This document shows positions 8,918 to 60,727 of a DNA stretch of 64,000 nt, piece by piece. How positions within the stretch are numbered: the first letter of the stretch is position 1; each line of letters begins with the position of its first letter. Made by a program: the position numbers and the translations under genes. Source of the DNA: Clostridia bacterium (lineage in GTDB: Bacteria; Bacillota; Clostridia; Oscillospirales; CAG-272); the NCBI GenBank assembly GCA_017550315.1, contig JAFZPN010000038.1, positions 4,419 to 68,418 of the forward strand. Reading direction: 5' to 3'. The notes beneath the pieces are model-generated. The model was not told where the DNA came from. It worked only from the letters and a program-made list of their open reading frames with translations, and made no database searches.

Positions 8918-8953
8918 AAACAGCCTCCTGTGCAATGGGTGATCTCTGAGCCT

Positions 8954-8962: not shown

Positions 8963-9074
8963 TATTCCGCCCGCCGTGAAAAGGGGGATCGGCAAACTTG
9001 CACGGTTTTTTTCGCGTGTTCCCGCGATATGACGCGGGGGAGTGGGAGAAAAGCGGCGATCTTAAACAAAACGG

Positions 9075-9103
9075 TTGACGCGGGCGGGCCGGTCTGCTAT
9101 AAT
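9075..9103 (+). promoter_or_regulatory. sigmaA-type promoter for the 9168->14408 operon
   Basis: TTGACG (9075-9080), 17-nt spacer, TGcTATAAT (-10 at 9098-9103). Confidence 0.65.
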
Positions 9104-9167
9104 GAAAACAGGAAATCAGGCTTTGCCGGGACTGCCGGCCGAGCCGCAATGCCCGGGAGGAATCGGG

Positions 9168-10415: not shown

Positions 10416-10447
10416 TACGATTAAGGATTAAGACGGAGGAGATCCTC

Positions 10448-11839: not shown

Positions 11840-11866
11840 GCATATCGCTCATCAGGAGGTTTGGCC

Positions 11867-13036: not shown

Positions 13037-13070
13037 TACCGAACATCTTACCTCAGAAAGGGGAATCACC

Positions 13071-24685: not shown

Positions 24686-24721
24686 TGCATGATTCCTCCC
24701 TTGAAGCGGATCTATGCATCC

Positions 24722-24750
24722 AGTATAGCACAAGAAAGCGCGGAAAGCAA
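24722..24750 (-). promoter_or_regulatory. sigmaA-type promoter for the GRE operon
   Basis: Minus strand reads TTGCTT (24750-24745), 17-nt spacer, TGcTATACT (-10 at 24727-24722), about 35 nt upstream of TTG 24685. Confidence 0.55.
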
Positions 24751-24811
24751 GCCTCCCTTTGCAGGATTCGCGCAAAAAACGAAAGGATATCACCGATTTC
24801 CGCGTTTGCCC

Positions 24812-24840
24812 TTGCGAAACCGTCCGGCTTATGCTATACT
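24812..24840 (+). promoter_or_regulatory. sigmaA-type promoter for the SGNH hydrolase gene
   Basis: TTGCGA (24812-24817), 17-nt spacer, TGcTATACT (-10 at 24835-24840). Confidence 0.55.
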
Positions 24841-24887
24841 GGTCTTGCAAGGATCCCCGAATTCTCATGGAACGGAGTTGAATCGAG

Positions 24888-25904: not shown

Positions 25905-25933
25905 TTGCATATCCGCGCGGGATATGGTATAAT
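25905..25933 (+). promoter_or_regulatory. sigmaA-type promoter for the binding-protein gene
   Basis: TTGCAT (25905-25910), 17-nt spacer, TGgTATAAT (-10 at 25928-25933). Confidence 0.65.
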
Positions 25934-25970
25934 CAAATCACCACTACTTCATCGAAAAGGAGAAGTTCCC

Positions 25971-43429: not shown

Positions 43430-45529
43430 TCATGCGTTCATCCTGCACACGGTCAGGATCTCGCCCGGCGTCGTCGGGATCTCAGTGATTTCTCCGTCGA
43501 GCAGGATCGTCTCGCCGCCCCGGAGGAGGACATATTCCTCGCCCGGCCGCTCGATCCGGAGGAGCATCCCTTTTTCGCTGAGGATCTGTGCACGGATCGC
43601 CCCGCCGCTCAGCTCCGCATCGACAACGAACGCGCCGTAGGCCCGCAGCCCGTGGAACGAGGCATCCGCCGACCGGTCCCAGCAGGGGAAGAGTCGGACG
43701 ATCCCCTCGTAGCTCTGGAGGAGCATTTCGTTGACCGTTCCGGGGATGCCCGCGCTGTTCTCGATCCCGCCCCCGCCGTACCGGATCATGCCGTTCGGCA
43801 GTCCGCGCTTCTCGAGCACCTCGTGGATGTGGCCGATGATCTCCTCCGGCGGGAGCCCGAGCCGCGCCGCCATCGGATAATAGGCGCAGAAGCGGTTGTG
43901 GCTGTCCCAGATGCTTAGTTTTCGGTGGGTGTTCTTCGCCGCCTCGAAGAGATCGGGCGTGATGGTTTTGCCGACCGCGCCGATCGGCATCATGTATTCG
44001 AGGGTCAGTTCGCGCAGAACGTCGCTTCCGTCGATCCCGCGCAGAATCGGCCCGTCGTCGGTATCGATGGTGTCGGCGCCGGGCAGGCGGTCGAGGATGT
44101 CCTGCCACACGGGGATCTTGTCCTCGTCAAGCCCGAGGGCCGAAGACAGATCGATCATCAGCTTCATGAGCATCCGCACGAGCCCGCGCGAGAGGATGGG
44201 ATTCCTGTCGTCCTGGCCCGAGGGCATGTGATCGGGACCGGCATACCATCCGACCTCATTCAGGGAATCGTTGTAGATCTGATAGACCTCGTCTTCGAGC
44301 ACGAGGTAATCCTCCCAGAATTCCGCGACCGACCGGAGGAATTCATAGTATTCGCGCCGGGCAAATTCCTCGTCCCGCGTCGCGTACCAGTGCATCATCG
44401 GGACCACGGCGGCGTAAGCCCCGTTGCTCTTCTGTCCGAGGAAGAGGTGCCCGTGCTCCTTGGTGTCCGGGCGGACGTCGGTCTCCATCCCGAGCGGACC
44501 GATCCCGACGGGGAAGTACGCGCCCCTCGTGCCGAGATACTCCGACGCATACCGCCTGGCGATCGGCAGAAAGTCGTTCAGCGGGGAGAAATAGCACGCG
44601 AGCAGCTCCGGATGGTTCGAGGCCGTCAGCGCGTAGAACGGCGCCTCGAAATTGTAATTGAGGTGATAGTCGCCGAACCAGCCCATGCCGTCCGCCGTGG
44701 AGTACGCGCCCCAGAGCCCCGGCGGGAATCTCTTGTTTCCCGCGCAGCAGGCGACCGCGTAGATCCCGGCATACCATCCGCGCTCGAGTTCCTTGTCCGG
44801 GAGGTTCACGCCGCTCTTCGACCAGAACTCCTCCCAGTGTCTCGCATGCTCCGCACGCAGACGGCAGCAGGCCTCCTCGTCGAGCGCGCGGACCTTTTCG
44901 ATCGCCTGATGCCGGTACGCCGCGGAGTCGTGATTGGTCATGACGGTGATCGCCCACAGCGTCCTCTCCCGTCCGTTCGAGACGGCGCGCGAGATCCGGC
45001 GGAGCGCGCAGATGCCCACGCTCGGGAAGCGGCATTCCGGCGTGTCAAAACCGCGCAGCGTGTAGACGATGTCCCCCTCCTCTCCGCGTACCGCCTCGGC
45101 CTCCGAACCTTCGAGGGGCAGGAGATTGAGCGAAGCGGACACGGCGGGATAGGAACGGTCGAGATCGAAGAGTATCGTGTTGTCCCCTGCACAGACCGTG
45201 ACCGTCAGGGATGCCGAGAAGCGCCCCGAAGTCAGGTTCAGGCGGATCAGGGCACGGTCGAGATCCTCTTCCGCCTCGTATTCCGCATACGCGAGATGGG
45301 GCAGGAGAAGCTCCGACAGCCCGAGAGGGGCGATCCCGCCGCGGTGTTCCGTATAGACGCGTCCGTCGGCTTTCCAGAAATCCGCCTTGCCGATGTAGAG
45401 CCGTACCCGGTCCGCACCGCCGGCGAGGATGGCGGTCACGTCGCCGTTGCCCGCGATCAGCCCGTCGGGCAGGGCGGTCGAGGGCGTCGCTTTCGCGGGC
45501 TCCCGGATGATATACTTGTGTTCGCTCAT
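43430..45529 (-). CDS. GH95/DUF5703-like glycoside-hydrolase-like protein (699 aa)
   Basis: Start ATG 45529 behind GGAGGG. The N-terminus reads ALPDGLIAGNGDVTAILAGGADRVRLYIGKADFWKADG (an LP.GNG start as in GH95-type beta-sandwiches). The central and C-terminal regions are helical-repeat-like (FEAPFYALTASNHPELL...). No signal peptide. Confidence 0.45.
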   Translation of the reverse strand: MSEHKYIIREPAKATPSTALPDGLIAGNGDVTAILAGGADRVRLYIGKADFWKADGRVYTEHRGGIAPLGLSELLLPHLAYAEYEAEEDLDRALIRLNLTSGRFSASLTVTVCAGDNTILFDLDRSYPAVSASLNLLPLEGSEAEAVRGEEGDIVYTLRGFDTPECRFPSVGICALRRISRAVSNGRERTLWAITVMTNHDSAAYRHQAIEKVRALDEEACCRLRAEHARHWEEFWSKSGVNLPDKELERGWYAGIYAVACCAGNKRFPPGLWGAYSTADGMGWFGDYHLNYNFEAPFYALTASNHPELLACYFSPLNDFLPIARRYASEYLGTRGAYFPVGIGPLGMETDVRPDTKEHGHLFLGQKSNGAYAAVVPMMHWYATRDEEFARREYYEFLRSVAEFWEDYLVLEDEVYQIYNDSLNEVGWYAGPDHMPSGQDDRNPILSRGLVRMLMKLMIDLSSALGLDEDKIPVWQDILDRLPGADTIDTDDGPILRGIDGSDVLRELTLEYMMPIGAVGKTITPDLFEAAKNTHRKLSIWDSHNRFCAYYPMAARLGLPPEEIIGHIHEVLEKRGLPNGMIRYGGGGIENSAGIPGTVNEMLLQSYEGIVRLFPCWDRSADASFHGLRAYGAFVVDAELSGGAIRAQILSEKGMLLRIERPGEEYVLLRGGETILLDGEITEIPTTPGEILTVCRMNA

Positions 45530-45582
45530 GTCATCCCTCCTTGATGTCGCATAGAAATCGGCTGTCATGATCTGTTGCTCCT

Positions 45583-45623: not shown

Positions 45624-45652
45624 TTGATTTCCATGCGCGGACTTGCTATAAT
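45624..45652 (+). promoter_or_regulatory. sigmaA-type promoter for the seven-gene 45736->53452 unit
   Basis: TTGATT (45624-45629), 17-nt spacer, TGcTATAAT (-10 at 45647-45652). It lies back-to-back with the minus-strand promoter 12 nt away. Confidence 0.65.
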
Positions 45653-45735: not shown

Positions 45736-47622
45736 ATGAAATGCCTGCTTCTCGCGAATGACTGTTCCGATTTTTCCCGCGTGCTCGAGAGCTGCGGGAT
45801 CGAGATTGTCCGGATGACGTTCGAGGATGCGCTGTGCGCGGATGTCACGCCCTATGACGCCTATGTGATCTTCGGCGCATCCCGGGTCCTCGATCCCCGG
45901 CTCCGCATCCGGCTGGAGGAGGAATGCGCGAAGGGAAAACGGTTCCTGACCGAAGCCCTCGGCAGCTGGCGCGGGATCTACTCGGCCCCGCCGGTCGTCA
46001 CCACGTCCCGCCGTCTGGTCGTCGTCTCCGAAGAGGAGGAGATCCCGGGTCTCTCCGTCGGGGATCTGCTCGACGACGGCAGCAACCGCATGACCCAGCC
46101 CTACTATCTCATCCCGGGCGTGAAGATGCTCCTCGCCTACCGGGATCACATCATTGCCCACCGCCATTGGAATGCCGATCCGGAGGAGATGCGGAAGGGC
46201 AGCGTCCCCGGCCTCTGGACCGTCGGCGACAATCTGATGATGACCTCCTTCGTGTTCCACAACTTCAATCGCGCGCGTCTCTCCCCACGGGAGGCATGGC
46301 GTAGGCTCATCGTCTTCCTCGTGAAGTGGATCACGGGGCGGGAACCTGCATGGTTCCCCGAACCAGTTGTGCGCTTCGGGGTCCCCGAGGATCTTACGGA
46401 CGACGCCGTTTTCGCGCGGTGCCGGCAGGAAGCTGTCGAGCACGGGATCCGCTGGCTCGAGCGATATTTGATCGACGAAGGACGCGGCGGCATCCGGGAA
46501 GGACTGCGCCACGACATCGATCCCGAAGGGAATCAGGCTACCGCCGACGGTGTGCGGACGGACTGCACCGGAGAGGCGGCAGGCGCGTTCCGGTTTTACG
46601 GCGCGCGGAAGGGGGACGGGAAAGCAGCGGCGATCGCGGACAATCTGACGGAGCTCGTCTTCGGCCCCATGATGGAGAAGGGCGGCCTGTTCGACGGGAT
46701 GCTTCGCTGGACGGACACGGCGTGGGAGGTCTGCTATCAGGACGACGCGGCCCGCGCGATGCTCCCGGCGCTGTATAACTGCCTGTTCCTCGGCGACAAC
46801 CGGGACTTTCCCGCCGTCTGCCGGGCGCTCGATTTTCTCGTGAAGACCACCGCGAAGGACGGATGCCGCGTCTCCCGCACCGATGCGCCGAACTTGAACG
46901 AAGAGAGCTTCCGCGCGCTTGCCGAAGCAGAACACGGCCATCCCTCCGCGCACTACAACGCCTACTATCACGCCGCCCTGCTGCTCGCTTACCGGATCGG
47001 CGGGAACCCGACCTATCTCGATGTCGGACGGCGCGGGCTCGAGACCATCATGGCGCTCTATCCCGACACGAAGCGGGAGCAGAGCGAAACGGAAGAGCAG
47101 TGCCGCCTGATCTTGCCGCTTGCCGCACTCTACGGCGCGACGGGAGAGGAGAAGCACCGCGCAATGCTGTATCGCGTGACGGACGATCTCGTGACGCACA
47201 TGCATCCGACGGGCGGCATTTCGGAATGGGACACGGGCTACCGGGCGAACTGCTCCCGCGAATCCCGCGGCGAATGCTCGCTTCTGACGGAAAACGGGGA
47301 CCCCGTAGCGGATCTCCTGTATGCGACGAACTGGCTGCCCGTCGGGTTTGCCTATGCCTATCACGTGACCGGGGACGAACGGTTCCGCAGTCTGTGGCGG
47401 GACGTCGCCGCGTTCTGCATCCGGGCGCAGCTCCGCTCGGACGATCCGAAGACCGACGGGTCATGGTGCCGCGCGTTTGACATGGAACTCGGCGAAGCAT
47501 ACGGCTGTCCGCACGACGTGGGCTGGGCGGCGAACTGCAGCGAATCCGGCTGGACGGACGCCGAGATCCTCATGGGCCTGATGATGCCGGAGATCCTCTC
47601 CCGCGCGGAGAAGCGCCGGTAA
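45736..47622 (+). CDS. Hypothetical two-domain protein (628 aa): small alpha/beta N-domain plus helical (alpha/alpha-toroid-like) C-domain
   Basis: SD AAGGAG (7 nt). The N-terminus MKCLLLANDCSDFSRVLESCGIEIV looks like a flavodoxin/GATase-like strand-helix start. The C-terminal ~350 aa are rich in helix pairs with Trp/Tyr/His (HYNAYYHAALLLAY, NWLPVGFAYAYHVTGD), as in (alpha/alpha)6 glycosidases or lyases. The antisense 572-aa ORF is rejected. Confidence 0.55.
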   Translation: MKCLLLANDCSDFSRVLESCGIEIVRMTFEDALCADVTPYDAYVIFGASRVLDPRLRIRLEEECAKGKRFLTEALGSWRGIYSAPPVVTTSRRLVVVSEEEEIPGLSVGDLLDDGSNRMTQPYYLIPGVKMLLAYRDHIIAHRHWNADPEEMRKGSVPGLWTVGDNLMMTSFVFHNFNRARLSPREAWRRLIVFLVKWITGREPAWFPEPVVRFGVPEDLTDDAVFARCRQEAVEHGIRWLERYLIDEGRGGIREGLRHDIDPEGNQATADGVRTDCTGEAAGAFRFYGARKGDGKAAAIADNLTELVFGPMMEKGGLFDGMLRWTDTAWEVCYQDDAARAMLPALYNCLFLGDNRDFPAVCRALDFLVKTTAKDGCRVSRTDAPNLNEESFRALAEAEHGHPSAHYNAYYHAALLLAYRIGGNPTYLDVGRRGLETIMALYPDTKREQSETEEQCRLILPLAALYGATGEEKHRAMLYRVTDDLVTHMHPTGGISEWDTGYRANCSRESRGECSLLTENGDPVADLLYATNWLPVGFAYAYHVTGDERFRSLWRDVAAFCIRAQLRSDDPKTDGSWCRAFDMELGEAYGCPHDVGWAANCSESGWTDAEILMGLMMPEILSRAEKRR

Positions 47623-47643
47623 ACGATCGAAAGGAGCGACAAC

Positions 47644-49077
47644 ATGTATTTAAGACATCTTTATCCCGCCCCGAAATCCTTCCGCGAGGACGAATCCGTG
47701 CGGTTCTGCTTCGGCGCGCACGTCACGGCCCGGGTGAGCGGACTTTCCCCGGCCTCTGCTGAGCGGGTCAGGGCGCTTTGGCATCGGTTCTGCTGCGACG
47801 CGTCCGATCTCGCCTGTATCCCCGGCGGCGAAGGATTTTGCTTCACCGTAGGAGAGACGTGCACCGCGCTTTCCGACGGAGATCGCTATGCGATTTGCGC
47901 CGATGCGTCCGGCGTCGCGGTGACGGCAGCGGACGAGGCCTCGCTGTTATATGGGATCGAAACCCTTGTGCAGCTGATCTGTCCCGACGATCTGACCGAG
48001 GGCAGGGAAGCCTTCTATATCTCGTCCGCCGAGGTACACGACGCCCCCGCGACCCCCTTCCGCGCCGTGCATTTCTGTCTCTTCCCGGACACGAAATTAT
48101 ACAATATCGAGAAGGCGATCAACCTCGCGGGATTCTTCAAGATGACCCACGTGATTCTCGAATTCTGGGGGACCTTCCCCTATGCCTGCGAGCCCGCCCT
48201 TGCGTGGAAGGACCGGTCCTTTTCGCGCTCGGAGCTGAAGAGCCTCGTCGATCTGGCGAGAAGCTGGGGCATGGAGGTCATTCCGATGTCGAATCAGTTC
48301 GGCCACGCCACACAGTCCCGCGGAGGCTACGGCCGGCATGTCCTTTTGAACCGCAATCCGCGGCTTTCGCGCCTCTTTGAGCCGGACGGCTGGACATGGT
48401 GCCTCTCGAACCCGGATACCTACAAGCTGCTCGCCGAAATGCGGGCGGAGCTCATCGATTTCTGCGGACCCGGCGGGTATTTCCACCTCGGATTCGACGA
48501 GGCATACTCCTATGCGACCTGCGACCGGTGCCGGAAGCGCGTCCCGCATGAGCTGCTCGCCGAATTCCTCAACCGCCTGACCGAGGACGTGTGCGGGACG
48601 GGCCGCCGTCCCATCGTCTGGCACGATCAGTTCCTCCGCCGCTCCGATTTCGGAGAGGGTCCCATTGTGGCGAACGGGGACAACCGGAACACGGCCGCCG
48701 CCCTCGATCTGCTCGACAGGAGGATCATCATGGCGGACTGGCAGTACGACTACCGGGACGGCTTCAACGTCACGACCTCCGTGCTGATGAACAAAGGATT
48801 CGACACCGTCGTCTGCCCGTGGGACAACCGGGAGAACATCCGCTCCCTCGCCGCCGACGCGAAAAAACTCGGTGCGTACGGCATCATCCTCACGACCTGG
48901 GATCATCTTCCGGCATGGCTGCGCGACGCGTCCTTTGCCGCCGGATGCGTCTGGGGAGAGGGCGAGGAAAACCCGCCGCATTCCTCCACCGAGAGCGCCT
49001 GCCTGCTCCGGCGTCTGTACGATGCGGACGGCAGCTTTGAAAAATCCGGCTGGAATCTCAACGAAGTCCTGCAATAA
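47644..49077 (+). CDS. GH20-like (beta-N-acetylhexosaminidase-like) TIM-barrel protein (477 aa)
   Basis: FRAVHFCLF...KMTHVILEFW..., MEVIPMSNQFGHA and YFHLGFDEAY parallel the GH20 strand motifs (R-x-x-x-D, H-x-H, IPE-x-D-x-PGH, H-x-GGDE) with substitutions. No signal peptide. Confidence 0.55.
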   Translation: MYLRHLYPAPKSFREDESVRFCFGAHVTARVSGLSPASAERVRALWHRFCCDASDLACIPGGEGFCFTVGETCTALSDGDRYAICADASGVAVTAADEASLLYGIETLVQLICPDDLTEGREAFYISSAEVHDAPATPFRAVHFCLFPDTKLYNIEKAINLAGFFKMTHVILEFWGTFPYACEPALAWKDRSFSRSELKSLVDLARSWGMEVIPMSNQFGHATQSRGGYGRHVLLNRNPRLSRLFEPDGWTWCLSNPDTYKLLAEMRAELIDFCGPGGYFHLGFDEAYSYATCDRCRKRVPHELLAEFLNRLTEDVCGTGRRPIVWHDQFLRRSDFGEGPIVANGDNRNTAAALDLLDRRIIMADWQYDYRDGFNVTTSVLMNKGFDTVVCPWDNRENIRSLAADAKKLGAYGIILTTWDHLPAWLRDASFAAGCVWGEGEENPPHSSTESACLLRRLYDADGSFEKSGWNLNEVLQ

Positions 49078-49136
49078 AACCCCTGCCGCCCGGGAATCCG
49101 TCACGGCACGCGAAAAGCAGAAAGAGAGGATCCATC

Positions 49137-50162
49137 ATGACAAGAGAAGAGGTTCGCGCGGCCATCCGGTTCGGAACTCCGCCGCGTCCGCCCCGCGCGT
49201 TCACCAAATGGTGGGGAGAGGGACTCGGGGAACAGTACGGAGCCGCGCTCTCCCGGTTTGACCGCTATGAGGAGGACGTCACGGTCGTCCCGTTTCCGTG
49301 TCCGTCCTTCACGCCGCGGGACGACGGGTTTTACTGGCGGCTGCCGACGATCGACCGTTCCCGCATGACGGGGATGGATTCCGCCGCCGCGCTCCCCGAC
49401 TGGGACGATCTCCCGGCCCTGCTCGCCGCTCTGCCCGATACGGACGCCCCCGGACTCTTTGACGACGCTGCGCGGATGGCAGAAGAGGCGCGGGCACAGG
49501 GACGGTATGTCCTGATCCACCACTGGTCCCTCATGTACGAGCGGATCTGGAACTTCCGCGGGATGGAGACCCTCATGATGGACTATTACGACTATCCCGA
49601 TGAGGTCCACGCTCTGCACCGCGCCATCTGCGACACGGAGATCAAGCTGTTCCGCCGGGCCATGCGCGAGGTGAAGCCGGACGGCTACATGATCAGCGAC
49701 GACCTCGGCACACAGAAAGCCCTCATGATGAGCCCCTCCACCTTCCGGGAATTCATCAAGCCCTATTACCGGGAGCTCTGGGGACTGGTGCGCGGATGCG
49801 ACGTGGACGTCTGGCTGCACACCTGCGGCAACATCACGGAGATCATCGGCGATCTCATCGAATGCGGGCTCTCCGTCCTGCACCCGATCCAGAAGCACAC
49901 GATGGACTGGGACGAGGTGGCGGCAAAGTGGAAGGGAAAGGTCGCGTTCTGGGTCGGGATGGACGTGCAGGACACGCTCATCAACGGGACCCCGGAGGAC
50001 GTCCGGCGCGAGGTGCGGCTCATGCGCGACACGTTCGACTCTCCGGCGGGCGGCTTTCTGTACGCGGCGGGGAACGGCATCGTACGAGGAACGCCGCTTG
50101 AGAACATCGAGGCCTTCCTCTCCGAATGCCTGACATACGGAAACGACGGAGAGATGCAATGA
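49137..50162 (+). CDS. URO-D superfamily protein, MtaA/MT2-like short form (341 aa)
   Basis: VWLHTCGNITEIIGDLIECGLSVLHPIQ (H-x-C-G) and the C-terminal GGFLYAAGNGIVRGTPLENIEAF match the URO-D/methylcobamide-methyltransferase barrel. Paralog of 52463-53452. Confidence 0.65.
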   Translation: MTREEVRAAIRFGTPPRPPRAFTKWWGEGLGEQYGAALSRFDRYEEDVTVVPFPCPSFTPRDDGFYWRLPTIDRSRMTGMDSAAALPDWDDLPALLAALPDTDAPGLFDDAARMAEEARAQGRYVLIHHWSLMYERIWNFRGMETLMMDYYDYPDEVHALHRAICDTEIKLFRRAMREVKPDGYMISDDLGTQKALMMSPSTFREFIKPYYRELWGLVRGCDVDVWLHTCGNITEIIGDLIECGLSVLHPIQKHTMDWDEVAAKWKGKVAFWVGMDVQDTLINGTPEDVRREVRLMRDTFDSPAGGFLYAAGNGIVRGTPLENIEAFLSECLTYGNDGEMQ

Positions 50163-50650
50163 AACGGGAACAGAAAACGATCCGCCTCCTCTTCGTCTGC
50201 TGGGGCAATATCTGCCGCAGTCCGATGGCGGAGTTCATCATGAAGGATCTCGTTCAGAGCGCGGGCCGTGCAGACGACTTTGTCATCGCGTCCGCGGCGA
50301 CCAGCGACGAGGAGATCGGATGGGGAGGCGTCGGGAATCCGGTCTATCCCCCGGCACAGAAGATCCTCGCCTCCCACGGCCTCGACTGCGGGAACAAGCG
50401 CGCCCGCCAGATGACCCGCTCCGATTATGAGAAGTGGGATCTTCTGATCGGCATGGAAGAGATGAACCTTCGATACATGAAAGAAATATGCGGCGGGGAT
50501 CCGGCAGGTAAGATCCGGCGGCTCCTCGACTGGAGCACCGATCCGCGCGACATTGCCGATCCGTGGTTCACGGGCGATTTTGAATCGACGTGGCGGGACA
50601 TTTCGGAGGGCTGCGCCGCGCTCTTTGCCGCACTGACGAAAGGAGCATGA
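50159..50650 (+). CDS. Low-molecular-weight protein tyrosine phosphatase (163 aa)
   Basis: P-loop LFVCWGNICRSPMAE (C-x5-R-S) and a DPW general-acid motif (IADPWFTGDF). The ATG overlaps the upstream stop (ATGA at 50159-50162). Confidence 0.85.
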   Translation: MKREQKTIRLLFVCWGNICRSPMAEFIMKDLVQSAGRADDFVIASAATSDEEIGWGGVGNPVYPPAQKILASHGLDCGNKRARQMTRSDYEKWDLLIGMEEMNLRYMKEICGGDPAGKIRRLLDWSTDPRDIADPWFTGDFESTWRDISEGCAALFAALTKGA

Positions 50651-50651
50651 C

Positions 50652-51026
50652 GTGGCCTCAACAAACGGATTTCTCGAATTTGTCCTCGAACAGCTTTCCC
50701 CGCTCGGCGACGTCTCCGCCCGGGCGATGATGGGGGAATACGTGCTGTACTGCCATGGCCGCGTGATCGGCGGGGTGTATGACGACCGCTTTCTCGTGAA
50801 GCAGACGGAGAACGCCCTGCGGATCCTGCGGGAAGAGGACGCCCCGATCGAATATGACATTCCCTACGAAGGCGCGAAGCCCATGCTTGTCGCGGACGTG
50901 GACGACCGGGAGCTGACCTGCCGGATCGTCGAAGCGGCGGCGGGCGATCTTCCCGCTCCGAAGAAAAAGGCGGGAAAAAAGAAAAAAGCCGGTGCGGCCG
51001 AAGCGGACGATTCACCGATCTCCTAA
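50652..51026 (+). CDS. TfoX/Sxy N-terminal-domain protein with Lys-rich tail (124 aa)
   Basis: GTG start 6 nt after AGGAG. FLEFVLEQLSPLGDVSARAMMGEYVLYCHGRVIGGVYDDRFLVK matches the TfoX_N pattern (...MFGgyglY..g..fa.i.dd.LylK). The C-terminus reads PAPKKKAGKKKKAG. Confidence 0.65.
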   Translation: MASTNGFLEFVLEQLSPLGDVSARAMMGEYVLYCHGRVIGGVYDDRFLVKQTENALRILREEDAPIEYDIPYEGAKPMLVADVDDRELTCRIVEAAAGDLPAPKKKAGKKKKAGAAEADDSPIS

Positions 51027-51060
51027 ATCTAAATCAACACGCAGAGGAGGATTTCACGGT

Positions 51061-52437
51061 ATGGAAGGCAAGTTCAATTACGACTACGCAAGGACGATGT
51101 GGATGAAGATGTATCTGGCGACGCCGGATTTTCCTCACGGCACGTCCGATGTCAAAATCAACTTCGAGCAGGCGCTCGGCATCATTAAGACGGTCGACGC
51201 GCTCACGCAGGGGATCACGAAGATCCTTTATCTCGTCGGCTGGCAGGGCCTCGGACACGACGACTGCTATCCGGAGATGCACAAGGTCAACGATTTTCTG
51301 AAACGGGACTGCGACCGCGACGGGCGGGAAGGCCTGCTCTGGCTGATCGCGGAGGCGAAGAAATATCACACGGTTGTCAGCGTCCACGGCAACCTCGCCG
51401 ATGAGTACGGCGACAACGAATCCCATGCGGATTTCGTCCGGGAAAACGCCATCGTGAAGCACCCGGACGGGGAATCGGCGGTCATCGAAGTCTTCAACGG
51501 GCGCAACGCCTATAAGGTCTCCTACAAGCAGTTCTGGGAAAGCGGGCTGTTCAAAAAGTACTGGGAGAAATTCCTCGAAACCGTTCCGGTCCGCGAGGCG
51601 GGGACGGTGCACCTCGACAATTTCTGCATCGCGGAGAACTTTTATCCCCGCACGACCGTGGAAGAGCAGGATGCCGCGCGCTGTGCCATCCTCGACTACA
51701 TCCGCGCGGAGGGGATCGACGTGACGTCCGAGTATCCCTACCGTGAACTGCTGCTCCGCGCCGACGATCCCGGCCATCCGATCCGCCGCTTCTACGCGCA
51801 GCACGTCGATGAGCTTCCCGTCGGTTCGTGGAAGGACGCCCCGATCCGCACCCTCGGCAGGATCGCTGCGACGTGGTGGACGAGCTGCATGACGCCCGAG
51901 GAATGCGTCTCCATTCCGCCGTCCCTCTACGGCGGCCACCTGACGGACAGCGCGCTCGGCGCGGTCTTTTACGGGACCATGCACGGCGAGGACATCTGGA
52001 TGTCGCACGGCATCCGCCCGGAAGACTGGGTTCCCCCCTTCCTGCGCGAGTTCTGCACGTATCAGCTCCCGTATCTCTATCTCAACCGGTACGCACGGAC
52101 GGGGATCGAGAAACAGGCGGACGGCAGCTACATCGCGCGCTTTTCGGACGGCATCGAGACCCGCGGGGCGGACCGGTCCATCCGGAAAAACGGGATCGTC
52201 GTCAAGCAGGGCGGGGATGTCATTCTGCCGCTCACGGACGACAACCGCACCTATATCGCCTATTCGGCGGACGGCTTCTCGGGCCGCTGGAATCTCCCCG
52301 ACGCAGCATTCACGTCCGGGACCGTCTGGGATATTACCGCCGAAGGAAACCGTTTCCTTGCGCCTTTGATGGTCGAGGACGGCGGGATCACGCTTTACCT
52401 GAAGCCGGGAGAAGCCGTCGTGATCCTCGCGGACTGA
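51061..52437 (+). CDS. GH101/GH129-like (endo-alpha-N-acetylgalactosaminidase-family-like) protein (458 aa)
   Basis: KILYLVGWQGLGHDDCYPEMHKVN matches the LVGWQ..GHD..YP strand motif I associate with GH101/GH129 catalytic barrels. No signal peptide. Confidence 0.5.
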   Translation: MEGKFNYDYARTMWMKMYLATPDFPHGTSDVKINFEQALGIIKTVDALTQGITKILYLVGWQGLGHDDCYPEMHKVNDFLKRDCDRDGREGLLWLIAEAKKYHTVVSVHGNLADEYGDNESHADFVRENAIVKHPDGESAVIEVFNGRNAYKVSYKQFWESGLFKKYWEKFLETVPVREAGTVHLDNFCIAENFYPRTTVEEQDAARCAILDYIRAEGIDVTSEYPYRELLLRADDPGHPIRRFYAQHVDELPVGSWKDAPIRTLGRIAATWWTSCMTPEECVSIPPSLYGGHLTDSALGAVFYGTMHGEDIWMSHGIRPEDWVPPFLREFCTYQLPYLYLNRYARTGIEKQADGSYIARFSDGIETRGADRSIRKNGIVVKQGGDVILPLTDDNRTYIAYSADGFSGRWNLPDAAFTSGTVWDITAEGNRFLAPLMVEDGGITLYLKPGEAVVILAD

Positions 52438-52462
52438 GAAAGACGATCGGAAAGGGAAAACC

Positions 52463-53452
52463 ATGACAAGATACGAACGGGTCAAAGCCGCCCTTGCGCA
52501 CCGCACGCCGGACCGCGTCCCCTCCTGCATCCACCTCGCGGGCGACGGTCAGCAGGCATATTTCGGGAAGCTCTACGACCGGTACGTCACGGGAGAACTG
52601 CGCGAAAAGCAGAAGGCCGGGCTGATCTCCTACGCCAACGCGATCTATTACGGCATGGGGAACCATGTGCTCCCCGTCGGATGCCCGTGGTGGGGGTGGA
52701 AGGATCTCCCGCCGGAATACGGATACGAGGAAGCGCCGGGATTCTTGCCGAAGACCGTGGGATACGGGAGCTACGAAGGCTTCGCCGCGGAGGTCCGGAA
52801 CCTGAAGGAAAACACCGACGCCTACGTCCTCGTGACGATCTGGGGCAGCCATTTCGAGAAGGCCAATTTCGCCCGCGGGATCGAAAACTTCCTCGCCGAT
52901 CTCGCCGCAGATCCGGAATACGCGCAGTCGATGCTCGATTTCATCATCCATAAGAACCTCGTGATGCTCGAGAACATCGTGAACATCCCCGGCATCGACG
53001 GCATCCTCCTCGGCAGCGACTGGGGATCCCAGCGCGATCTTCTCATGTCCCCGTCCACCTGGCGGACGATGATTCGGCCCGGCGAGGAGCGGGAATACAA
53101 GATCATCAAGGACGCGGGGCTCGACGTGTGGATCCACTCCTGCGGCGATATCCGCAAGATCATGCCCGATCTCTACGACATGGGAATCGACGCGCTCAAC
53201 CCCGTCCAGCCGGAGTGCATGGACATCTATGAGCTCAAGGACCGCTACGGCGACCGGATCACCTTCTGGGGCGGCATCAGCACCCAGCGGACACTCCCGT
53301 ACGGAACGCCCGAGGACGTGAAGCGTGAAGCGCGGGAGATCGCCGCTTACATGGGCCGGGACGGCGGGTACATCCTCGCGCCGTCGCAGGAGATCCAGGC
53401 CGACGTGCCCTACGAAAACCTCTGCGCGCTGATCGAAGCGGCGGAGGAGTGA
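52463..53452 (+). CDS. URO-D superfamily protein, MtaA/MT2-like short form (329 aa)
   Basis: VWIHSCGDIRKIMPDLYDMGIDALNPVQ (H-x-C-G), ITFWGGISTQRTLPYGTPEDVKREAREI and GGYILAPSQEIQADVPYENLCALIEA together form a typical URO-D/MtaA-like C-terminal half. Confidence 0.7.
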   Translation: MTRYERVKAALAHRTPDRVPSCIHLAGDGQQAYFGKLYDRYVTGELREKQKAGLISYANAIYYGMGNHVLPVGCPWWGWKDLPPEYGYEEAPGFLPKTVGYGSYEGFAAEVRNLKENTDAYVLVTIWGSHFEKANFARGIENFLADLAADPEYAQSMLDFIIHKNLVMLENIVNIPGIDGILLGSDWGSQRDLLMSPSTWRTMIRPGEEREYKIIKDAGLDVWIHSCGDIRKIMPDLYDMGIDALNPVQPECMDIYELKDRYGDRITFWGGISTQRTLPYGTPEDVKREAREIAAYMGRDGGYILAPSQEIQADVPYENLCALIEAAEE

Positions 53453-53489: not shown

Positions 53490-53535
53490 GGCTGCCGCAT
53501 GCAACCGATAGAGGGAAATGCGGCAGCCATTCTTT
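53490..53535. terminator. Hairpin terminator between convergent units
   Basis: 11-bp perfect stem GGCTGCCGCAT/ATGCGGCAGCC (53490-53500 with 53518-53528) and a 17-nt loop. AAAA upstream and ATTCTTTCT downstream. Confidence 0.55.
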
Positions 53536-53561: not shown

Positions 53562-56500
53562 TCACGCGTTTCCGAGCAGGCGGTACAGGAAGGTCACGAT
53601 CTGGCCTCTCGTGCAGACGTCATTCGGCGCGAAGAGGCTGTCCGAGACGCCCCTCGTCACACCGCGGGAGAGAGCCCAGACCACCGCATCGCGGTAATAC
53701 GCGCCGTCCGGCACATCGAGGAACGGATTCTCTCCGTCGGCCGCTTCGTCCATCAAGCGGCAGAGCAGGGTGACTGCCTGGCCGCGGGTGACGGATTCGC
53801 CGGGCGAGAAGTGCGCGGGATCCGTTCCGGTGGTGACCCCGTTCTGATAGGCCCAGAGGACCGCATCGGCGAAGTAGGCATCCCCGGGAACGTCGGCGAA
53901 GGGATTCGCCGCATCTGCGGGAGCGGGACAGCCGGCAGCGCGCCAGAGGAAGGTGATCATCTGCGCGCGGGTGCAGGAGCCGTCCGGCGCAAAGTGCGTC
54001 TCATCCACACCGGCGGTGATCCCGAGCTTCACAGCCCAGTCCACGGCGTCCGCATAGTACGCACCGGCAGGCACATCGACGAACACGGGTGTCTGCTCTG
54101 CGGCCGGCACATCCGGCGTCACGGGCGTATTGTCTGCCGCGGGAGCTGCGGGTGCGGCGTCCGTCTGCGGCTTGGATTCGGATTCCAGAGCGGCGCGGCG
54201 CAGGGCGAGCAGCTCGGACCCGATGGACGGGAAGGGTATCCACGGCCGGACGGAGGTGCCGGGCTTCTCCTCCTCTTCCGGTTTCTCCGGTTCGGCAGGG
54301 AGCAGATTGAATGTGTATTCCGCATCGACAAAGGATTCGTACCACTTCTCTTCCCAACTGTCGTAGTACGCCGGAATGTGGTACAACATCTCTATATCCT
54401 CACCGTTGATGGTGAAGAGTCCGGCGTATGTGTATTCGTCATCCGGATCGACGTAAAACGCGACGTCATCCGCACACAGAAATACTTTGAAACCGAAGGT
54501 CCATTCCAGATCGCCGTCCAGAGCGGTCTCTTCCGTGACGTCTTCGGCGAAATATTGGTAACGATATTCTTCGTCGTGGAGCAGGAATTCTCTCGGCTCA
54601 TACGGAACGCCGTCCGGCGCGCGCAGGAGGAGGAGATCCTCTCCGCGGTCGTCCTCATGGGGAATTTCGTAGGTCAATTCGATCTTGTCGATCAGACGGA
54701 TCCATTTTGCCGAGAGGATCATGTCCTCCTCCGCGAGGAGGTCGTCCCACGGCGTCCCGTTCTCATCTTCCCAATCGACGAACTGCCAGCGCCAGCATAC
54801 CGTATCGTCCTTGTATGTGCCGAGGTCGTCCGGCCTCATGCCCGACAGGCTGAGCGGCGTGCCCTTGTCCATCGTCACGGGATCGGGAGCAGGCGCATAG
54901 CCGTCCGTGTCAAACGAAACGGTGACCTGTTCCGGCGTGCCGATCGTGAATTTCCACGTGCCGCTGACGCGCATCTCGCCGTCCCGGTATTCCACCGTGC
55001 GGTTCCCGAAATCCTCCCCGTTGAGGGTAAAGCGGGAGTCGGCCGGACCGGAATGTCCGATCATGACAAGCGTCGCATCAAGGTAATAGACCTTGCCGCT
55101 CTCCAGGACATCGTCATCCGTCCGCCAGGCAAGGTCTTCGACGGTCAGCCACGGCAGGCCGAGCGCCTTCGCGGCATCCTCCGTCTCACCCGGGGCGGCA
55201 GCTGCGTCATCCCCTGCGGCAGGTTCCGTGATCGTGAGCGCGATGTCATCCGGCACCGGTGCGGGAGCCAGCAGCTTCAGCCGCGCGAGGATCACGTCGG
55301 GATGGTGGGAGAACACGAGCGTGCCGCTGTCGAGCGCGAGGTTGAGCACGGAGCTGATGATCGATTGAATGTCTTCGGGTATATCGTAGTCTTCCGCGTA
55401 CACTGCCAGATTCTGCGCGACGTATTCTTCCGCGTTCGGGAGGATATAATCTTCCTCTAAGGCGGGCGAGACATCCACGAGCAGAGGCGCGAGGAGATTC
55501 AAGAGCGCGTAGACCCCGGTTTTCTCGACGGAGGCCCCGATCTTCTCCGTCATCAGAGCGCAGACGCGTTCCGTGATGCCGTAATACTGTTCGGCGGATG
55601 CCGCGATCGCCGCATCCTTATCTTCGCCTGCGGGGAGGGTCTGGGCGTACGCATCCGCGCAGCACGCGAAGACCAGCCGGGAGAGGACGTCGATCAGTTT
55701 CTCCATCTCGCCGAGCAGCTCGGTGAGCTCCGTCTTCAGGGCGTCCATCGCCTCCGGTGAACCGAAAATCACATGGCACAGAGCTTCCAGCCCCTCCTGA
55801 TACGTGAAGGATCCGATTTCGGGCCGTTCGTTCGGCGCGGTATAGGCATCCCGCGTGGGAACGGTCGTGCCGAGGCTGTCCGTCAGGGATGTGAGATATT
55901 CCTTCACGCTCATCCCGTATTTATCGGCATAGTTCCGGTTGTAGTGCGGATCCGCCTGATCGTTTCCGAGATAGTATTCCGCGGCCGGCGCGTTCAGCTT
56001 CTCGAGCGATTCCATGACCTCGTCGAAGGAAAACCGCGTGTTGTAGATGAATTCCTCGCCGTAGCGGGTCATGCCCCAGAGAGGCAGCATCGTGACCGGG
56101 TCGTCGTCGGAGAGGTAGTTGTGGATGCCTGTGTACCGCGTATCGTGTGCGTCCGCGTTCTCCGTCGTGGCGGGGGCTTCCAGCGTATAGCCGAAGACCG
56201 TGGGATGGCTGTCCCGGTCGAGCAGATACGCCGCCGCAAGATTCGCGATCGCGCCGCCGCGGCTCTGTCCCGTGACGAGGAGGATATCCTCTTCTCCGAA
56301 TCCGAGCGCATCAAAATCGCTGAGGAAGGCTTTCGCGGCGGCGGAATACGAGGCGTGGTCGGGCGTCGTGTTGTCCGCGCTGTTCACCTTGACATTCTGC
56401 TGCCAGCCCTTGTCGCCGTAAAGATCGCCCTGGAACGAGACGACTGCTAGCTTTCTGTCGCCGAGCGTCTTCGTGCCGAGGATGTAGGCGCTGTCGTCCG

Positions 56501-56846
56501 CCGACGTGCTGTCATACCGTTTGCCTGCGGCGTCGAACCCGAGTGCGGTGAGCGTGTCGACGACATGGCTGCTGTCATCCGTCGAACCCGCGGCGAGCTG
56601 TGCGGCCCACAGCGCGAGGCTGTCGTTGCGCTCCGACGGATCGGCGTCGAACCATTCGTCGGTGTAATAGCAGCTGTCGGTGACGTATTCGTTCAAAACT
56701 TTGGAGAAGTATTCCAGCTTCGCCGTCTGATAATCGGCTTCGCTCTCCTCGGCGGCGAAAACCGCGGACGGCACCGCGCCGATGCAAAGGACAAGCGCAA
56801 GCAGGAAGGAAAGAAGCCGGATTCTTGTTTTCTTCGTGTTGGTCAT
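53562..56846 (-). CDS. Secreted, SLH-anchored lipase/esterase-like protein (1094 aa)
   Basis: Signal peptide RIRLLSFLLALVLCIGAVPSAVFAAE. Class-3-lipase-like elbow LLVTGQSRGGAIANLAAAYL (GxSxG). Three C-terminal SLH repeats: FVDVPAGAYYADAVDWAV..., FADVPGDAYFADAVLWAY... and FLDVPDGAYYRDAVVWAL.... Confidence 0.7.
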   Translation of the reverse strand: MTNTKKTRIRLLSFLLALVLCIGAVPSAVFAAEESEADYQTAKLEYFSKVLNEYVTDSCYYTDEWFDADPSERNDSLALWAAQLAAGSTDDSSHVVDTLTALGFDAAGKRYDSTSADDSAYILGTKTLGDRKLAVVSFQGDLYGDKGWQQNVKVNSADNTTPDHASYSAAAKAFLSDFDALGFGEEDILLVTGQSRGGAIANLAAAYLLDRDSHPTVFGYTLEAPATTENADAHDTRYTGIHNYLSDDDPVTMLPLWGMTRYGEEFIYNTRFSFDEVMESLEKLNAPAAEYYLGNDQADPHYNRNYADKYGMSVKEYLTSLTDSLGTTVPTRDAYTAPNERPEIGSFTYQEGLEALCHVIFGSPEAMDALKTELTELLGEMEKLIDVLSRLVFACCADAYAQTLPAGEDKDAAIAASAEQYYGITERVCALMTEKIGASVEKTGVYALLNLLAPLLVDVSPALEEDYILPNAEEYVAQNLAVYAEDYDIPEDIQSIISSVLNLALDSGTLVFSHHPDVILARLKLLAPAPVPDDIALTITEPAAGDDAAAAPGETEDAAKALGLPWLTVEDLAWRTDDDVLESGKVYYLDATLVMIGHSGPADSRFTLNGEDFGNRTVEYRDGEMRVSGTWKFTIGTPEQVTVSFDTDGYAPAPDPVTMDKGTPLSLSGMRPDDLGTYKDDTVCWRWQFVDWEDENGTPWDDLLAEEDMILSAKWIRLIDKIELTYEIPHEDDRGEDLLLLRAPDGVPYEPREFLLHDEEYRYQYFAEDVTEETALDGDLEWTFGFKVFLCADDVAFYVDPDDEYTYAGLFTINGEDIEMLYHIPAYYDSWEEKWYESFVDAEYTFNLLPAEPEKPEEEEKPGTSVRPWIPFPSIGSELLALRRAALESESKPQTDAAPAAPAADNTPVTPDVPAAEQTPVFVDVPAGAYYADAVDWAVKLGITAGVDETHFAPDGSCTRAQMITFLWRAAGCPAPADAANPFADVPGDAYFADAVLWAYQNGVTTGTDPAHFSPGESVTRGQAVTLLCRLMDEAADGENPFLDVPDGAYYRDAVVWALSRGVTRGVSDSLFAPNDVCTRGQIVTFLYRLLGNA

Positions 56847-59191: not shown

Positions 59192-60727
59192 TTATTTGAT
59201 TCCCTCGTACTTCTCAAGCAGCTTTTCGAGGGATTTCATCGTGACCTTTTCGTTCTTCGCCAGGGATGACGCGGCGTTTTCACAGTTTGTCGCGGAGGCA
59301 AGAAGACCGCGGATCTTGCCGATGGGGGAGTTCAGGCTTCCGCCGAAGATGTAGCCGATATCGAGATAGATCCCGTCCACGATAATGTCAAGCATCTGGG
59401 AGGTTTCGGAATCGCGGGAGTACTTTGCCTTGAGCGCCGTCTCAAAGTAGGCGGGCGTCACCGTGCGGAAGGATTCAGCGCTCATGGCTTCGAGGAACGC
59501 CGCGACCATGGCCGCATCCGGCTCCGTGACGGGGATGCTGAAGGAGGAGGATGCATCGTGGACATATTCGGCGTATTTTTCCTGCGCCGTGTCAAGCTTC
59601 GGCATCGGCAGGATCCCGAAGTCGGATTCCATATCGCGCAGCAGATCGATGCCCGAGAGCATCCACGTGACGAAAATCGTCTGGTCCGCCTTCATCGTAT
59701 CCATGATCTGGTCGTTGTTGTACGGCAGACGCAGGGTGTTCGTCCCCTCGAAGAGGAGCTTGTGCATTTTCTCCGTGAAAGTGATCATCCGGTCGCAGGT
59801 CGCGTTGAAGAACCACGTTCCGTCGTCAGCTTTCTTCAGGTATTCGACTCTGGCCGCTCCGTAGAAGGAATCTGCGCCGAGCGTGTCGGTGTTCGTGAAG
59901 TAGTGACCGAAGATATCGCCTTCATCCGGTGATCCGTTGCCGTTCGCGTCCTGATAGACCGGTTCGCAGAGGGAGGTCATCTTGTCGATGGTCCATTCCC
60001 CCTCGTTTACGATCTGATAGAGGTTGATCTCTCCGTTGTAAAAGGTGTCGAACAGGGTCCTGTTGAAGAACATCACGAACGCACCGGAGATCATCGTCTG
60101 CCCGATCTCGCCCATGACGGTGTAGTTGTGCCCGTTGAAATTGGTCTGCTCCAGAAAGGCATGGTTGTACCACGGCGCCGAGAAGTCCAGGTACGGCAGC
60201 TCTTCCATCGGCAGAAGGATGTTCTCCATCGTCAGGGACATCATCGAATACATGCCGTTGCCGAGCAGGTCATAGTCATTGGTCCCGGAGGCGACGGATT
60301 TCTGAATCTGGGTATTTGTGCCGCCGTGGATGTTGACTGCTGCGAGGATCAGATCCATCGCAATGTTCAGTCTCTCCTGCGCGGCGAGATTCCGGGCATA
60401 CACCGCGTCGTTGACCACTTCGCCGTTCAGTTCTTCCGCCTGAAATTCCATCAGGGTGTCACGGTCGCCGCCGCGGGTGAAGAAGTGCAGCGTCGCGCCG
60501 CCGAAGTCGAGATCATCCGGCAGCGAGTCCTTCACATTGGAGCGTCCGTTGCCCGCGGGTTCTTCGGGATCCTCCGCCAGGGCATCCGCCGTGGGAGCAT
60601 CCGCGGTCAGCGCGGGGGAAGCGGTCGGTTCGTCGGTTGCGCCGTTCCCGCCGGATGAGCAGGAGACGGTCCCCCAGAGCAGGAGCGCCGCAAGGAGCAG
60701 GGAGAGGATGCGCATTCTGTTTTTCAT
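59192..60727 (-). CDS. Extracellular solute-binding lipoprotein (511 aa), paralog 3 of 3
   Basis: MKNRMRILSLLLAALLLWGTVSCSSGG contains a VSC lipobox. It shares FSAPWYN and TPAYFETALKAKYSRD with the other two paralogs. SD GGAGG (7 nt). Confidence 0.7.
   Translation of the reverse strand: MKNRMRILSLLLAALLLWGTVSCSSGGNGATDEPTASPALTADAPTADALAEDPEEPAGNGRSNVKDSLPDDLDFGGATLHFFTRGGDRDTLMEFQAEELNGEVVNDAVYARNLAAQERLNIAMDLILAAVNIHGGTNTQIQKSVASGTNDYDLLGNGMYSMMSLTMENILLPMEELPYLDFSAPWYNHAFLEQTNFNGHNYTVMGEIGQTMISGAFVMFFNRTLFDTFYNGEINLYQIVNEGEWTIDKMTSLCEPVYQDANGNGSPDEGDIFGHYFTNTDTLGADSFYGAARVEYLKKADDGTWFFNATCDRMITFTEKMHKLLFEGTNTLRLPYNNDQIMDTMKADQTIFVTWMLSGIDLLRDMESDFGILPMPKLDTAQEKYAEYVHDASSSFSIPVTEPDAAMVAAFLEAMSAESFRTVTPAYFETALKAKYSRDSETSQMLDIIVDGIYLDIGYIFGGSLNSPIGKIRGLLASATNCENAASSLAKNEKVTMKSLEKLLEKYEGIK

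Follow-up and report, generated by a model that had tools for sequence, protein, structure and literature searches.

Two genes in a 64,000-nucleotide (nt) stretch of contig JAFZPN010000038.1 from a Clostridia bacterium (assembly GCA_017550315.1; the whole stretch is called the window below) encode paralogous proteins of the uroporphyrinogen decarboxylase (URO-D) superfamily, which were designated A (341 amino acids, aa) and B (329 aa). Both keep the first half of the zinc site of the methyltransferase MtaA, carry an invariant amide at the position of its distal cysteine ligand, and are encoded among glycosidase-like genes in one seven-gene unit. We tentatively propose, at somewhat less than even confidence, that A and B are cytoplasmic metal-dependent sugar-modifying enzymes with an open coordination site, belonging to a URO-D/methyltransferase 2 (MT2) TIM-barrel branch that was recruited to glycan breakdown.

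Family membership and closest relatives

The preliminary description of this DNA had called A and B URO-D-superfamily paralogs, and this assignment was borne out. The Pfam URO-D profile PF01208 matched A with 77.1 bits (E = 1.7e-21) and B with 71.8 bits (E = 7e-20) against a cut-off of 23.9, with both matches confined to profile positions ~152–345 (the C-terminal ~190). A and B were 30% identical over 247 aa in BLASTP (E = 9e-39), and the profiles of their homologs aligned end to end in hhalign with a probability of 100%. The only PDB sequence match of A or B obtained with phmmer was MtaA of Methanosarcina mazei (4ay7, E ~3e-8). The same structure was the best Foldseek match (E = 7.5e-15, TM-score 0.69) of the AlphaFold2 model of B, which had a mean predicted local distance difference test score (pLDDT) of 92.6. 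MtaA and 24 HemE chains together covered E = 7.5e-15 to 2e-9 and TM-scores of 0.63–0.70, with MetE further off. The folds of B and of a 415-aa protein encoded elsewhere in the window are those of predicted models, and the URO-D fold of A follows from its hhalign match to B.

Placement in the MT2 branch, as suggested earlier, held only in part. MtaA was the closest relative by both sequence and Foldseek, whereas the NCBIfam family TIGR01463 (MtaA/CmuA) gave 59.4 bits for A and 82.9 bits for B against a cut-off of 235.4, and the NCBIfam MtaA equivalog gave 52–64 bits for A and B against a cut-off of 400. Canonical MT2 membership (MtaA/MtbA/CmuA) is ruled out by these cut-offs together with the loss of the distal Cys, and A and B are MT2-like in a loose sense only. 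They share with MtaA/MtbA the URO-D-type TIM barrel, a length of ~330–340 aa, the His-x-Cys-Gly at the same strand end and, in B, a conserved acidic residue past the next strand (Glu251). Unlike MtaA/MtbA, to which they are ~19–24% identical, they have an N-terminal half that is unrelated at the sequence level, Gln or Asn instead of the distal Cys, Gln instead of the aligned Glu, and a setting in bacterial glycosidase operons with no corrinoid protein or methanogenesis context. Against CdmB (PDB 9rui), the B profile reached an E-value of 0.3 over 68 residues only.

HemE, the founder of PF01208, resembles B in fold (Foldseek E = 1e-13 to 1e-9, TM-score ~0.65–0.70), but it has no metal site and carries FTKGGG where A and B have H-S/T-C-G. 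The motif PxWxMRQAGR (PVWMMRQAGR in E. coli) had no counterpart in A, in B, or in the 415-aa protein when they were aligned with E. coli K-12 HemE (L095). The LFSDIL region, with the Asp of HemE, was gapped in A and B, and GSPWTLATYMVEGG aligned with GSHFEKANFA of B. The positions of the catalytic Asp and Tyr of HemE, which we take to be human D86 and Y164, were absent or gapped in A and B. Since the RQAGR motif and both catalytic positions are missing, A and B are not HemE. Tetrapyrrole biosynthesis genes were likewise found neither in the window nor among the top families of the 188 neighbours of B orthologs. Members of the B family are currently named "hypothetical", "uroporphyrinogen decarboxylase", or "methylcobamide-CoM methyltransferase" in databases, and the latter two names are not supported.

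No glycoside hydrolase (GH) or carbohydrate esterase family in Pfam or NCBIfam matched A, B, or the 415-aa protein. Nor did Foldseek find a solved carbohydrate-active enzyme (CAZyme) with the fold of the B model, which resembled sugar epimerases and GH5-type enzymes only as TIM barrels in general (E ≥ 3e-6, TM-score ≤ 0.5).

A putative remodelled metal site

The His and Cys of LHTCGN in A (WLHTCGN) and IHSCGD in B (WIHSCGD) aligned in the phmmer comparisons with LHICGN of MtaA 4ay7, which contributes its His-x-Cys zinc ligands, confirming the earlier reading of these two motifs. Conservation was counted in 39 A orthologs and in 72 B orthologs from at least 10 phyla (Clostridia, Treponema, Lentisphaerae, Planctomycetota, Verrucomicrobiota, Kiritimatiellia, Latescibacterota, Armatimonadota, Chloroflexota, and KSB1). 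His225, Cys227, Gln249, Glu251, and Gln309 of B were invariant (72/72), as were Asp186, Trp76/77/79/187, Glu132, Lys133, and Arg138, and the conserved positions of B were rich in Trp and Tyr (W76, W77, W79, W187, W223, W269, and Y121). The invariant residues of A (39/39) were His228, Cys230, His249, Gln252, and Asn313.

The distal Cys ligand of MtaA (Cys319, APGCGI) aligned with APSQEI in B, at Gln309, and with AAGNGI in A, at Asn313. The Glu of the MtaA VEE motif aligned with Gln249 of B and Gln252 of A. Two residues past Gln249 lies the invariant Glu251 of B; its equivalent in A, His254, varies, while His249 of A does not, all of these being positions as aligned. The downstream Cys residues that had been offered as additional members of the zinc site turned out to be variable in B (Cys252, 53/72; Cys321, 25/72) and in A (Cys243, 22/39; Cys331, 27/39), which rules out a downstream Cys as third zinc ligand. 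None of them aligned with the third ligand of MtaA. Because the distal Cys is an invariant Gln or Asn and the remaining Cys residues vary, the complete H-x-C-x(n)-C site is absent from A and B, and of the proposed MT2-like zinc site the H-x-C part alone stands. A genuine MtaA-like protein encoded near a B ortholog, in locus L052, retains the distal Cys (SSGCDI).

The conserved candidate ligands thus form a trio, His/Cys/Glu in B and His/Cys/His in A, beside two invariant amides. Three candidate ligands are likewise retained in each of the URO-D-like paralogs whose genes adjoin those of B orthologs, but the sets differ: a distal His in the VHN, AHE, and SHE types, and Asp/Glu/His in the xSDG types. 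Such varied three-ligand sets are more in keeping with Lewis-acid catalysis than with a thiol-activating site rich in sulfur. The signature motifs of the families are HSCG ... NPxQPE ... SQxxQxD for B, HTCG ... HPIQK ... GNG for A, and YGCC for the 415-aa family.

Distribution and genomic neighbourhood

Homologs of B fell into more than 5,000 clusters at 90% identity. The A family is smaller, with 591 clusters. In a scan of one genome per species, the B signature NP[IVL]QPECM was found in at least 596 genomes, including those of ruminant and gut Clostridia, Treponema, Lentisphaerae/Victivallales, Planctomycetota, Verrucomicrobiota, Kiritimatiellia, Latescibacterota, Armatimonadota, Chloroflexota, Poribacteria, and KSB1.

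Homolog loci, given here by L numbers, were viewed as ±10 kb around each homolog, with genes called by a simple open reading frame (ORF) picker; neighbour tallies cover 80 loci and the 99 genes directly adjacent to B. The families met most often among these 99 genes were other URO-D genes (9), AraC-type regulators (8), GH95 (4), GH31 (3), GH116 (2), sulfatases (2), and DUF5703 (2). Second neighbours included xylose-isomerase-like barrels (5), GH95, GH29, and sulfatases. Counted by locus, GH95 or GH29 occurred in 14 of the 80, AraC in 9, GH31 in 8, and a sulfatase in 7. GH95 was the most frequent glycosidase neighbour of B orthologs. These glycosidase counts are descriptive.

Same-strand arrays were found in distant phyla, with the order GH116-B-URO-D-GH29 in an Oscillospiraceae metagenome-assembled genome (MAG; L021) and GH3/CBM6-B in an Armatimonadota MAG (L090). 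In a second Armatimonadota MAG (L089), GH29 lay ~1.5 kb upstream of an xSDG-type-B pair, and in L005 an AraC gene preceded B, a GH63-like gene and, further on, GH29. The xSDG-type subfamily, which has T/M-S-D-G in place of H-x-C and a GNH His at the distal position, was paired with B in at least nine loci (L058, L021, L024, L034, L044, L050, L072, L075, and L089). A 415-type gene, a TSDG-type gene, and B stood in tandem in L058 (Chloroflexota, 7613–10939); genes for a double class II aldolase and an AA_permease-Usp protein lay upstream of the three.

A different setting was seen in L033, L035, L037, L039, L041, and L094 (~11000–13060 in each). Downstream of B and in its orientation, these loci carry genes for a methionine gamma-lyase-like pyridoxal phosphate (PLP) enzyme of family PF06838 and for an ATP-grasp protein of the RimK type, and a GH31 gene is divergent. 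The arrangement hints at sulfur or amino-acid chemistry in this clade of rumen Clostridia. Among the A loci no conserved partner was found, and neighbouring lipoproteins were not common between loci.

Corrinoid partners

No corrinoid-binding protein, RACo, or intact MT2 was found in the 64-kb window, in agreement with the preliminary description as far as the corrinoid protein is concerned. An Rfam search of the window returned no family at the gathering threshold and thus no cobalamin riboswitch. The search was extended to 94 loci and the window (1.44 Mb) using a six-frame B12-binding motif and tblastn with a corrinoid protein and RACo. A corrinoid partner near B was found in a single case, L052, and in none of the other 93 loci. 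The corrinoid methyltransferase cluster of L052 (6218–14120) looks complete, and its order was a 378-aa URO-D gene, the 333-aa MtaA-like gene, RACo, B, an AraC-type regulator, a 211-aa corrinoid protein (DLHDIG), and a 189-aa protein. The B ortholog there was 53% identical to B, kept every invariant residue, and nested within the B family in a neighbor-joining (NJ) tree without support values; a basal position, which would have suggested an ancestral corrinoid link, was not seen in this tree. L052 keeps the methyltransferase idea alive, and the other 93 loci argue against a dedicated corrinoid partner as the rule.

Colocalization of corrinoid methyltransferases, corrinoid proteins, and activases has been reported as frequent (PMC10418091). 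The mlp clusters of Kountz and Balskus (MtaA-like protein, corrinoid protein, and Ram/RACE activase), which are restricted to obligate anaerobes, likewise bring several URO-D paralogs together in non-methanogens, and L052 is similar to them (PMC10418091). Mlps are defined by >25% identity to coenzyme M (CoM) methyltransferases and are always accompanied by a corrinoid protein and an activase, whereas the window has neither of the two and MtaA is a more distant relative of A and B. The methyltransferase 1 (MT1) enzymes with a URO-D fold (OdmB, VdmB, MtvB, and CdmB; PDB 9rui) also share the barrel and commonly occur in paralog arrays. Their small methyl donor is held in a cavity lined by aromatic residues, over which the corrinoid docks, and some contain zinc while others have none (PMC13222342). 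Unlike A and B, however, they are ~400–430 aa long, are normally encoded beside a corrinoid protein and an MT2, and act on aryl methyl ethers or halomethanes, not sugars; their sequence kinship to B is marginal.

Proposed function

In the function that we tentatively favor, the first half of the zinc site known from MtaA would be kept as the His-x-Cys at the barrel strand end plus Glu251 (B) or His249 (A) on the next strand, and the exchangeable Glu and distal Cys of MtaA would have become the invariant amides Gln249 and Gln309 in B and Gln252 and Asn313 in A. A metal, probably Zn2+, would then sit on three protein ligands with one position open, as judged from sequence. The pocket around it would be rich in conserved aromatic residues and carboxylates (in B, W76/W77/W79/W187/W223/W269, Y121, D186, E132, D254, and D314), which may suit a sugar. 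Working as a Lewis acid, the metal would act on an oxygen of the sugar, either of a hydroxyl or of an ether or ester, for which the zinc that polarizes methanol in MtaB and the Cys/His/Glu zinc site of polyol dehydrogenases may serve as parallels. The N-termini of A and B have no signal peptides, which places both proteins in the cytoplasm. The target would be a small non-glycosidic decoration, which the enzymes would take off or rearrange on oligo- or monosaccharides that are imported or that the nearby GH20, GH101-like, and GH95-like enzymes release intracellularly, and the reaction at the window locus would proceed without a dedicated corrinoid protein.

Several points weigh against this proposal. 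To our knowledge, the URO-D superfamily is known solely for tetrapyrrole decarboxylation or methyl/alkyl transfer, and a different reaction would therefore be without precedent. The putative metal binding of A and B derives from alignment only. One B clade is followed by the PF06838 C-S-lyase-like and RimK-like genes and not by glycosidases, and the contexts of A orthologs are varied and mostly non-glycan (fumarase, dxr, and xanthine-dehydrogenase-like genes). In L052, an ordinary B ortholog sits inside a cluster with a corrinoid protein, RACo, and an MtaA-like protein. The gene of an MT2 enzyme such as MtaA often lies apart from that of its corrinoid protein, and the missing corrinoid neighbour is therefore weak evidence.

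A wider proposal, which we consider speculative and rather unlikely, is that A, B, the 415-aa protein, and the xSDG-type paralogs constitute an unrecognized class of metal-dependent carbohydrate-active enzymes on the URO-D scaffold. At its most exciting, this class may supply the missing anaerobic route for removing sugar methyl ethers, with the methyl group passed to a corrinoid in trans (as in L052) or to a thiol; in aerobes, sugar methyl ethers are removed by cytochrome P450. A full-text literature search for papers linking URO-D or methylcobamide enzymes with glycosidases, polysaccharide utilization loci, CAZymes, fucosidases, sulfatases, or methylated sugars found no relevant paper, nor was any paper found that describes the A/B family.

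Alternative explanations

The alternative that survives best, which takes up the methyl transfer from modified sugars suggested in the preliminary description, is that A and B are corrinoid-dependent methyltransferases (substrate-activating MT1-like or MT2-like enzymes) that strip O-methyl groups from sugars such as 2-O-methyl-fucose, 2-O-methyl-xylose, 6-O-methyl-galactose, or 4-O-methyl-glucuronate and pass the methyl group to a corrinoid protein whose gene lies in another part of the genome. We judge this improbable on the whole, though with an appreciable chance of being correct. MtaA is the nearest characterized relative by sequence and fold and the zinc-ligand His-x-Cys is retained, but the distal Cys and the aligned Glu are invariant Gln or Asn, and the NCBIfam MtaA/CmuA scores of 59–83 bits lie far under the 235-bit cut-off. 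On the genomic side, the B gene of L052, flanked by RACo, the MtaA-like gene and the 378-aa URO-D gene on one side and by AraC and the corrinoid protein on the other, speaks for such a function, and fucosidase-rich contexts are compatible with fucose decorations; yet a corrinoid protein or RACo was found beside only 1 of the 94 loci and not in the window. The B family also occurs in groups that are not known for such systems (Armatimonadota, Poribacteria, and Planctomycetaceae), which counts weakly against it, and we know of no corrinoid O-demethylase for aliphatic sugar methyl ethers; no paper on one was found either. The tandem URO-D-like paralogs nevertheless resemble MT1/MT2 sets and mlp clusters (PMC10418091), and URO-D-fold MT1 enzymes such as CdmB, with their aromatic-lined cavities, may do without zinc (PMC13222342).

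The glycosidase link could also be a mere effect of GH-dense genomes, with A and B in an unrelated housekeeping or small-molecule role, for example in demethylating plant methoxylated aromatics, which we think quite unlikely. The non-glycan contexts of A orthologs and the descriptive nature of the glycosidase counts would fit this explanation, as would the 114–128 Pfam families counted among ~90–100 neighbours, where no partner exceeded ~10%. It is opposed by the tight same-strand B-GH arrays in distant phyla (L021 in Oscillospiraceae, L089 and L090 in Armatimonadota, and L005), by the AraC-type regulators, of the sugar-responsive kind, that adjoin B in 8–9 loci, and by the concentration of the B family in glycan-degrading lineages.

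A MetE-like function, in which a corrinoid-independent zinc enzyme would directly alkylate or methylate a thiol (homocysteine, another low-molecular-weight thiol, or a protein Cys) from an activated donor, with the glycosidase context being secondary, appears very unlikely. The C-terminal barrel of MetE shares the superfamily fold (Foldseek E = 1e-6 to 1e-4 with B) and comes next after MtaA and HemE in similarity. Its zinc site consists of His, Cys, Glu, and Cys on equivalent strands, and the His/Cys/Glu trio corresponds to the MetE/MtaA site less one Cys. However, thiol-activating zinc sites normally hold at least two Cys ligands and only one Cys is invariant here; MetE is moreover a two-barrel protein of ~750 aa. 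The PF06838 PLP gene located 3' of B, apparently in one operon with it, in six loci of related rumen Clostridia would favor thiol chemistry, as would the L052 ortholog being the sister of this clade in the NJ tree without support values, but the link is confined to one clade (6/80 loci). The operon of the window contains no sulfur-metabolism genes, and the window offers no folate or homocysteine context.

Finally, a role as genuine HemE in haem or sirohaem biosynthesis has practically no chance, in line with the preliminary description, because the PF01208 matches and the name "uroporphyrinogen decarboxylase" given to homologs in the sources are outweighed by a profile match in the C-terminal half only, the missing or gapped HemE motifs, the lack of tetrapyrrole genes in the window or among the 188 neighbouring genes, and the fact that MtaA outscores every HemE.

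The 415-aa protein

The preliminary description had also named a third, longer relative of A and B in the window. Its URO-D fold was supported by a predicted model (pLDDT 92.4) whose top 22 Foldseek matches were all HemE or MtaA (E = 3e-8 to 1e-5), with HemE on top. No Pfam or NCBIfam family matched the protein, a PDB profile search gave no match, and the comparison with A and B was marginal (BLASTP E = 0.02–0.07; hhalign 49% over 43 columns). Its kinship is thus supported by the predicted fold and by gene linkage, and not by sequence. Its orthologs lay directly upstream of B orthologs in L001–L004 (67% identical), L020, and L058. Locus tags at NCBI gave a further adjacent 415-type/B pair (IJB52_06560/06565), and the pair E7631_04960/04965 is apparently the L001 case. 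The family comprised 1,768 representative clusters. In alignment A1, the vicinal Cys304-Cys305 (YGCC) was present in 59/59 sequences, and E76, W266, and Q272 were invariant. The pair recalls the Cys-Cys of the GH127 zinc site.

Organization of the locus

The window has 61% G+C, and most of its long ORFs are consequently spurious; codon-position G+C was used to select the real genes, of which there are ~39, including A and B. The coordinates of the main features are listed in Table 1.

Table 1. Main features of the window discussed in the text
Feature	Position	Strand	Evidence or remarks
415-aa protein, predicted URO-D fold	9168–10415	+	No Pfam family; invariant Cys304-Cys305
GH95-like gene (alpha-L-fucosidase/galactosidase family)	43430–45568	-	PF22124, 5.9e-18; divergent, shares the intergenic region with the seven-gene unit
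Promoter-like site, TTGATT-17 nt-TATAAT, extended TG	45624–45652	+	Consensus scan; 84 nt 5' of gene 1
Gene 1, 628 aa, no signal peptide	45736–47622	+	Sub-threshold GH127-like PF07944, 16.2 bits (cut-off 24.9)
Gene 2, 477 aa, distant GH20 beta-N-acetylhexosaminidase-like	47644–49077	+	PF00728, 3.4e-13; PF02838, 9.8e-6
Gene 3, URO-D-like paralog A, 341 aa	49137–50162	+	Invariant His228/Cys230/His249; Asn313 at the MtaA distal-Cys position
Gene 4, low-molecular-weight phosphotyrosine-phosphatase-like	50159–50650	+	PF01451, 2.6e-28; CWGNICRS motif
Gene 5, 124 aa, TfoX N-terminal domain	50652–51026	+	PF04993, 2.1e-9
Gene 6, ~458 aa, weakly GH101-like (endo-alpha-N-acetylgalactosaminidase family)	51061–52437	+	PF12905, 9.3e-7, 28.9 bits (cut-off 25)
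Gene 7, URO-D-like paralog B, 329 aa	52463–53452	+	Invariant His225/Cys227/Glu251, Gln249, Gln309
Hairpin, 11-bp stem GGCTGCCGCAT...ATGCGGCAGCC, then T-rich tail	53490–53529	+	Sequence reading; between convergent genes

The seven-gene unit that had been described between 45624 and 53490 was upheld as an arrangement. Its genes (45736–53452) are tightly packed, with intergenic gaps of -4 to 59 nt, and the likely start of gene 4 overlaps the stop codon of gene 3. The unit is preceded by one of four promoter-like sites found by the consensus scan, where 1.5 were expected, and followed by the hairpin, its probable terminator. The same gene order was retained in two ruminant MAGs (L015 and L016), whose B orthologs were 93–94% identical. 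The GH20 assignment of gene 2 was backed by 16 matching PDB GH20 chains (best 7.5e-12), while a PDB search gave no sequence relative for gene 6. For gene 1, the PDB search also returned no relative and the GH127-like hit was the sole family match; its product may be a further unclassified glycosidase. The phosphatase-like and TfoX_N genes stand mid-operon among glycosidase genes, as they also do in L015.

Convergent with the operon, at the same hairpin, lies the gene for a secreted 1094-aa protein (53562–56846, - strand) with a Lipase_3-like domain and three C-terminal SLH domains. Glycosidase-like genes crowd the window, comprising two GH36-like genes as well as GH4, DUF4838/GH20b, GH76-like, BNR_2, GH95-like, GH20, GH101-like, and GH106-like genes. 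An 831-aa glycyl-radical enzyme (22535–25030, - strand; PFL-like, 5.8e-135; Gly_radical, 8.5e-30) is encoded in a GH-rich region and could be a dehydratase of deoxy-sugar-derived diols or another glycyl-radical enzyme. Three paralogous ~500-aa lipoproteins with no Pfam match (25905–27470, + strand; 41879–43375 and 59192–60727, - strand) may be sugar-binding proteins of ABC transporters; homologs of them were also found in the vicinity of B in 7 of 80 other loci, as well as in L005.

Significance

A and B represent a large and conserved subfamily that has been misannotated and is set apart by its remodelled metal site and its new genomic context. Among known enzymes, they most resemble MtaA, MetE, and zinc enzymes of the MtaB type. 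The motifs of the B, A, and 415-aa families provide handles for mutagenesis and for the correction of annotations. The carriers of B are mostly rumen and gut Clostridia and members of glycan-specialist phyla (Lentisphaerae, Planctomycetota, Verrucomicrobiota, and Kiritimatiellia). If A and B do act on sugar decorations, they would close a gap in the anaerobic stripping of non-glycosidic substituents from fucosylated, sulfated, and methylated glycans, and the URO-D fold would be a new scaffold in the carbohydrate-enzyme repertoire.

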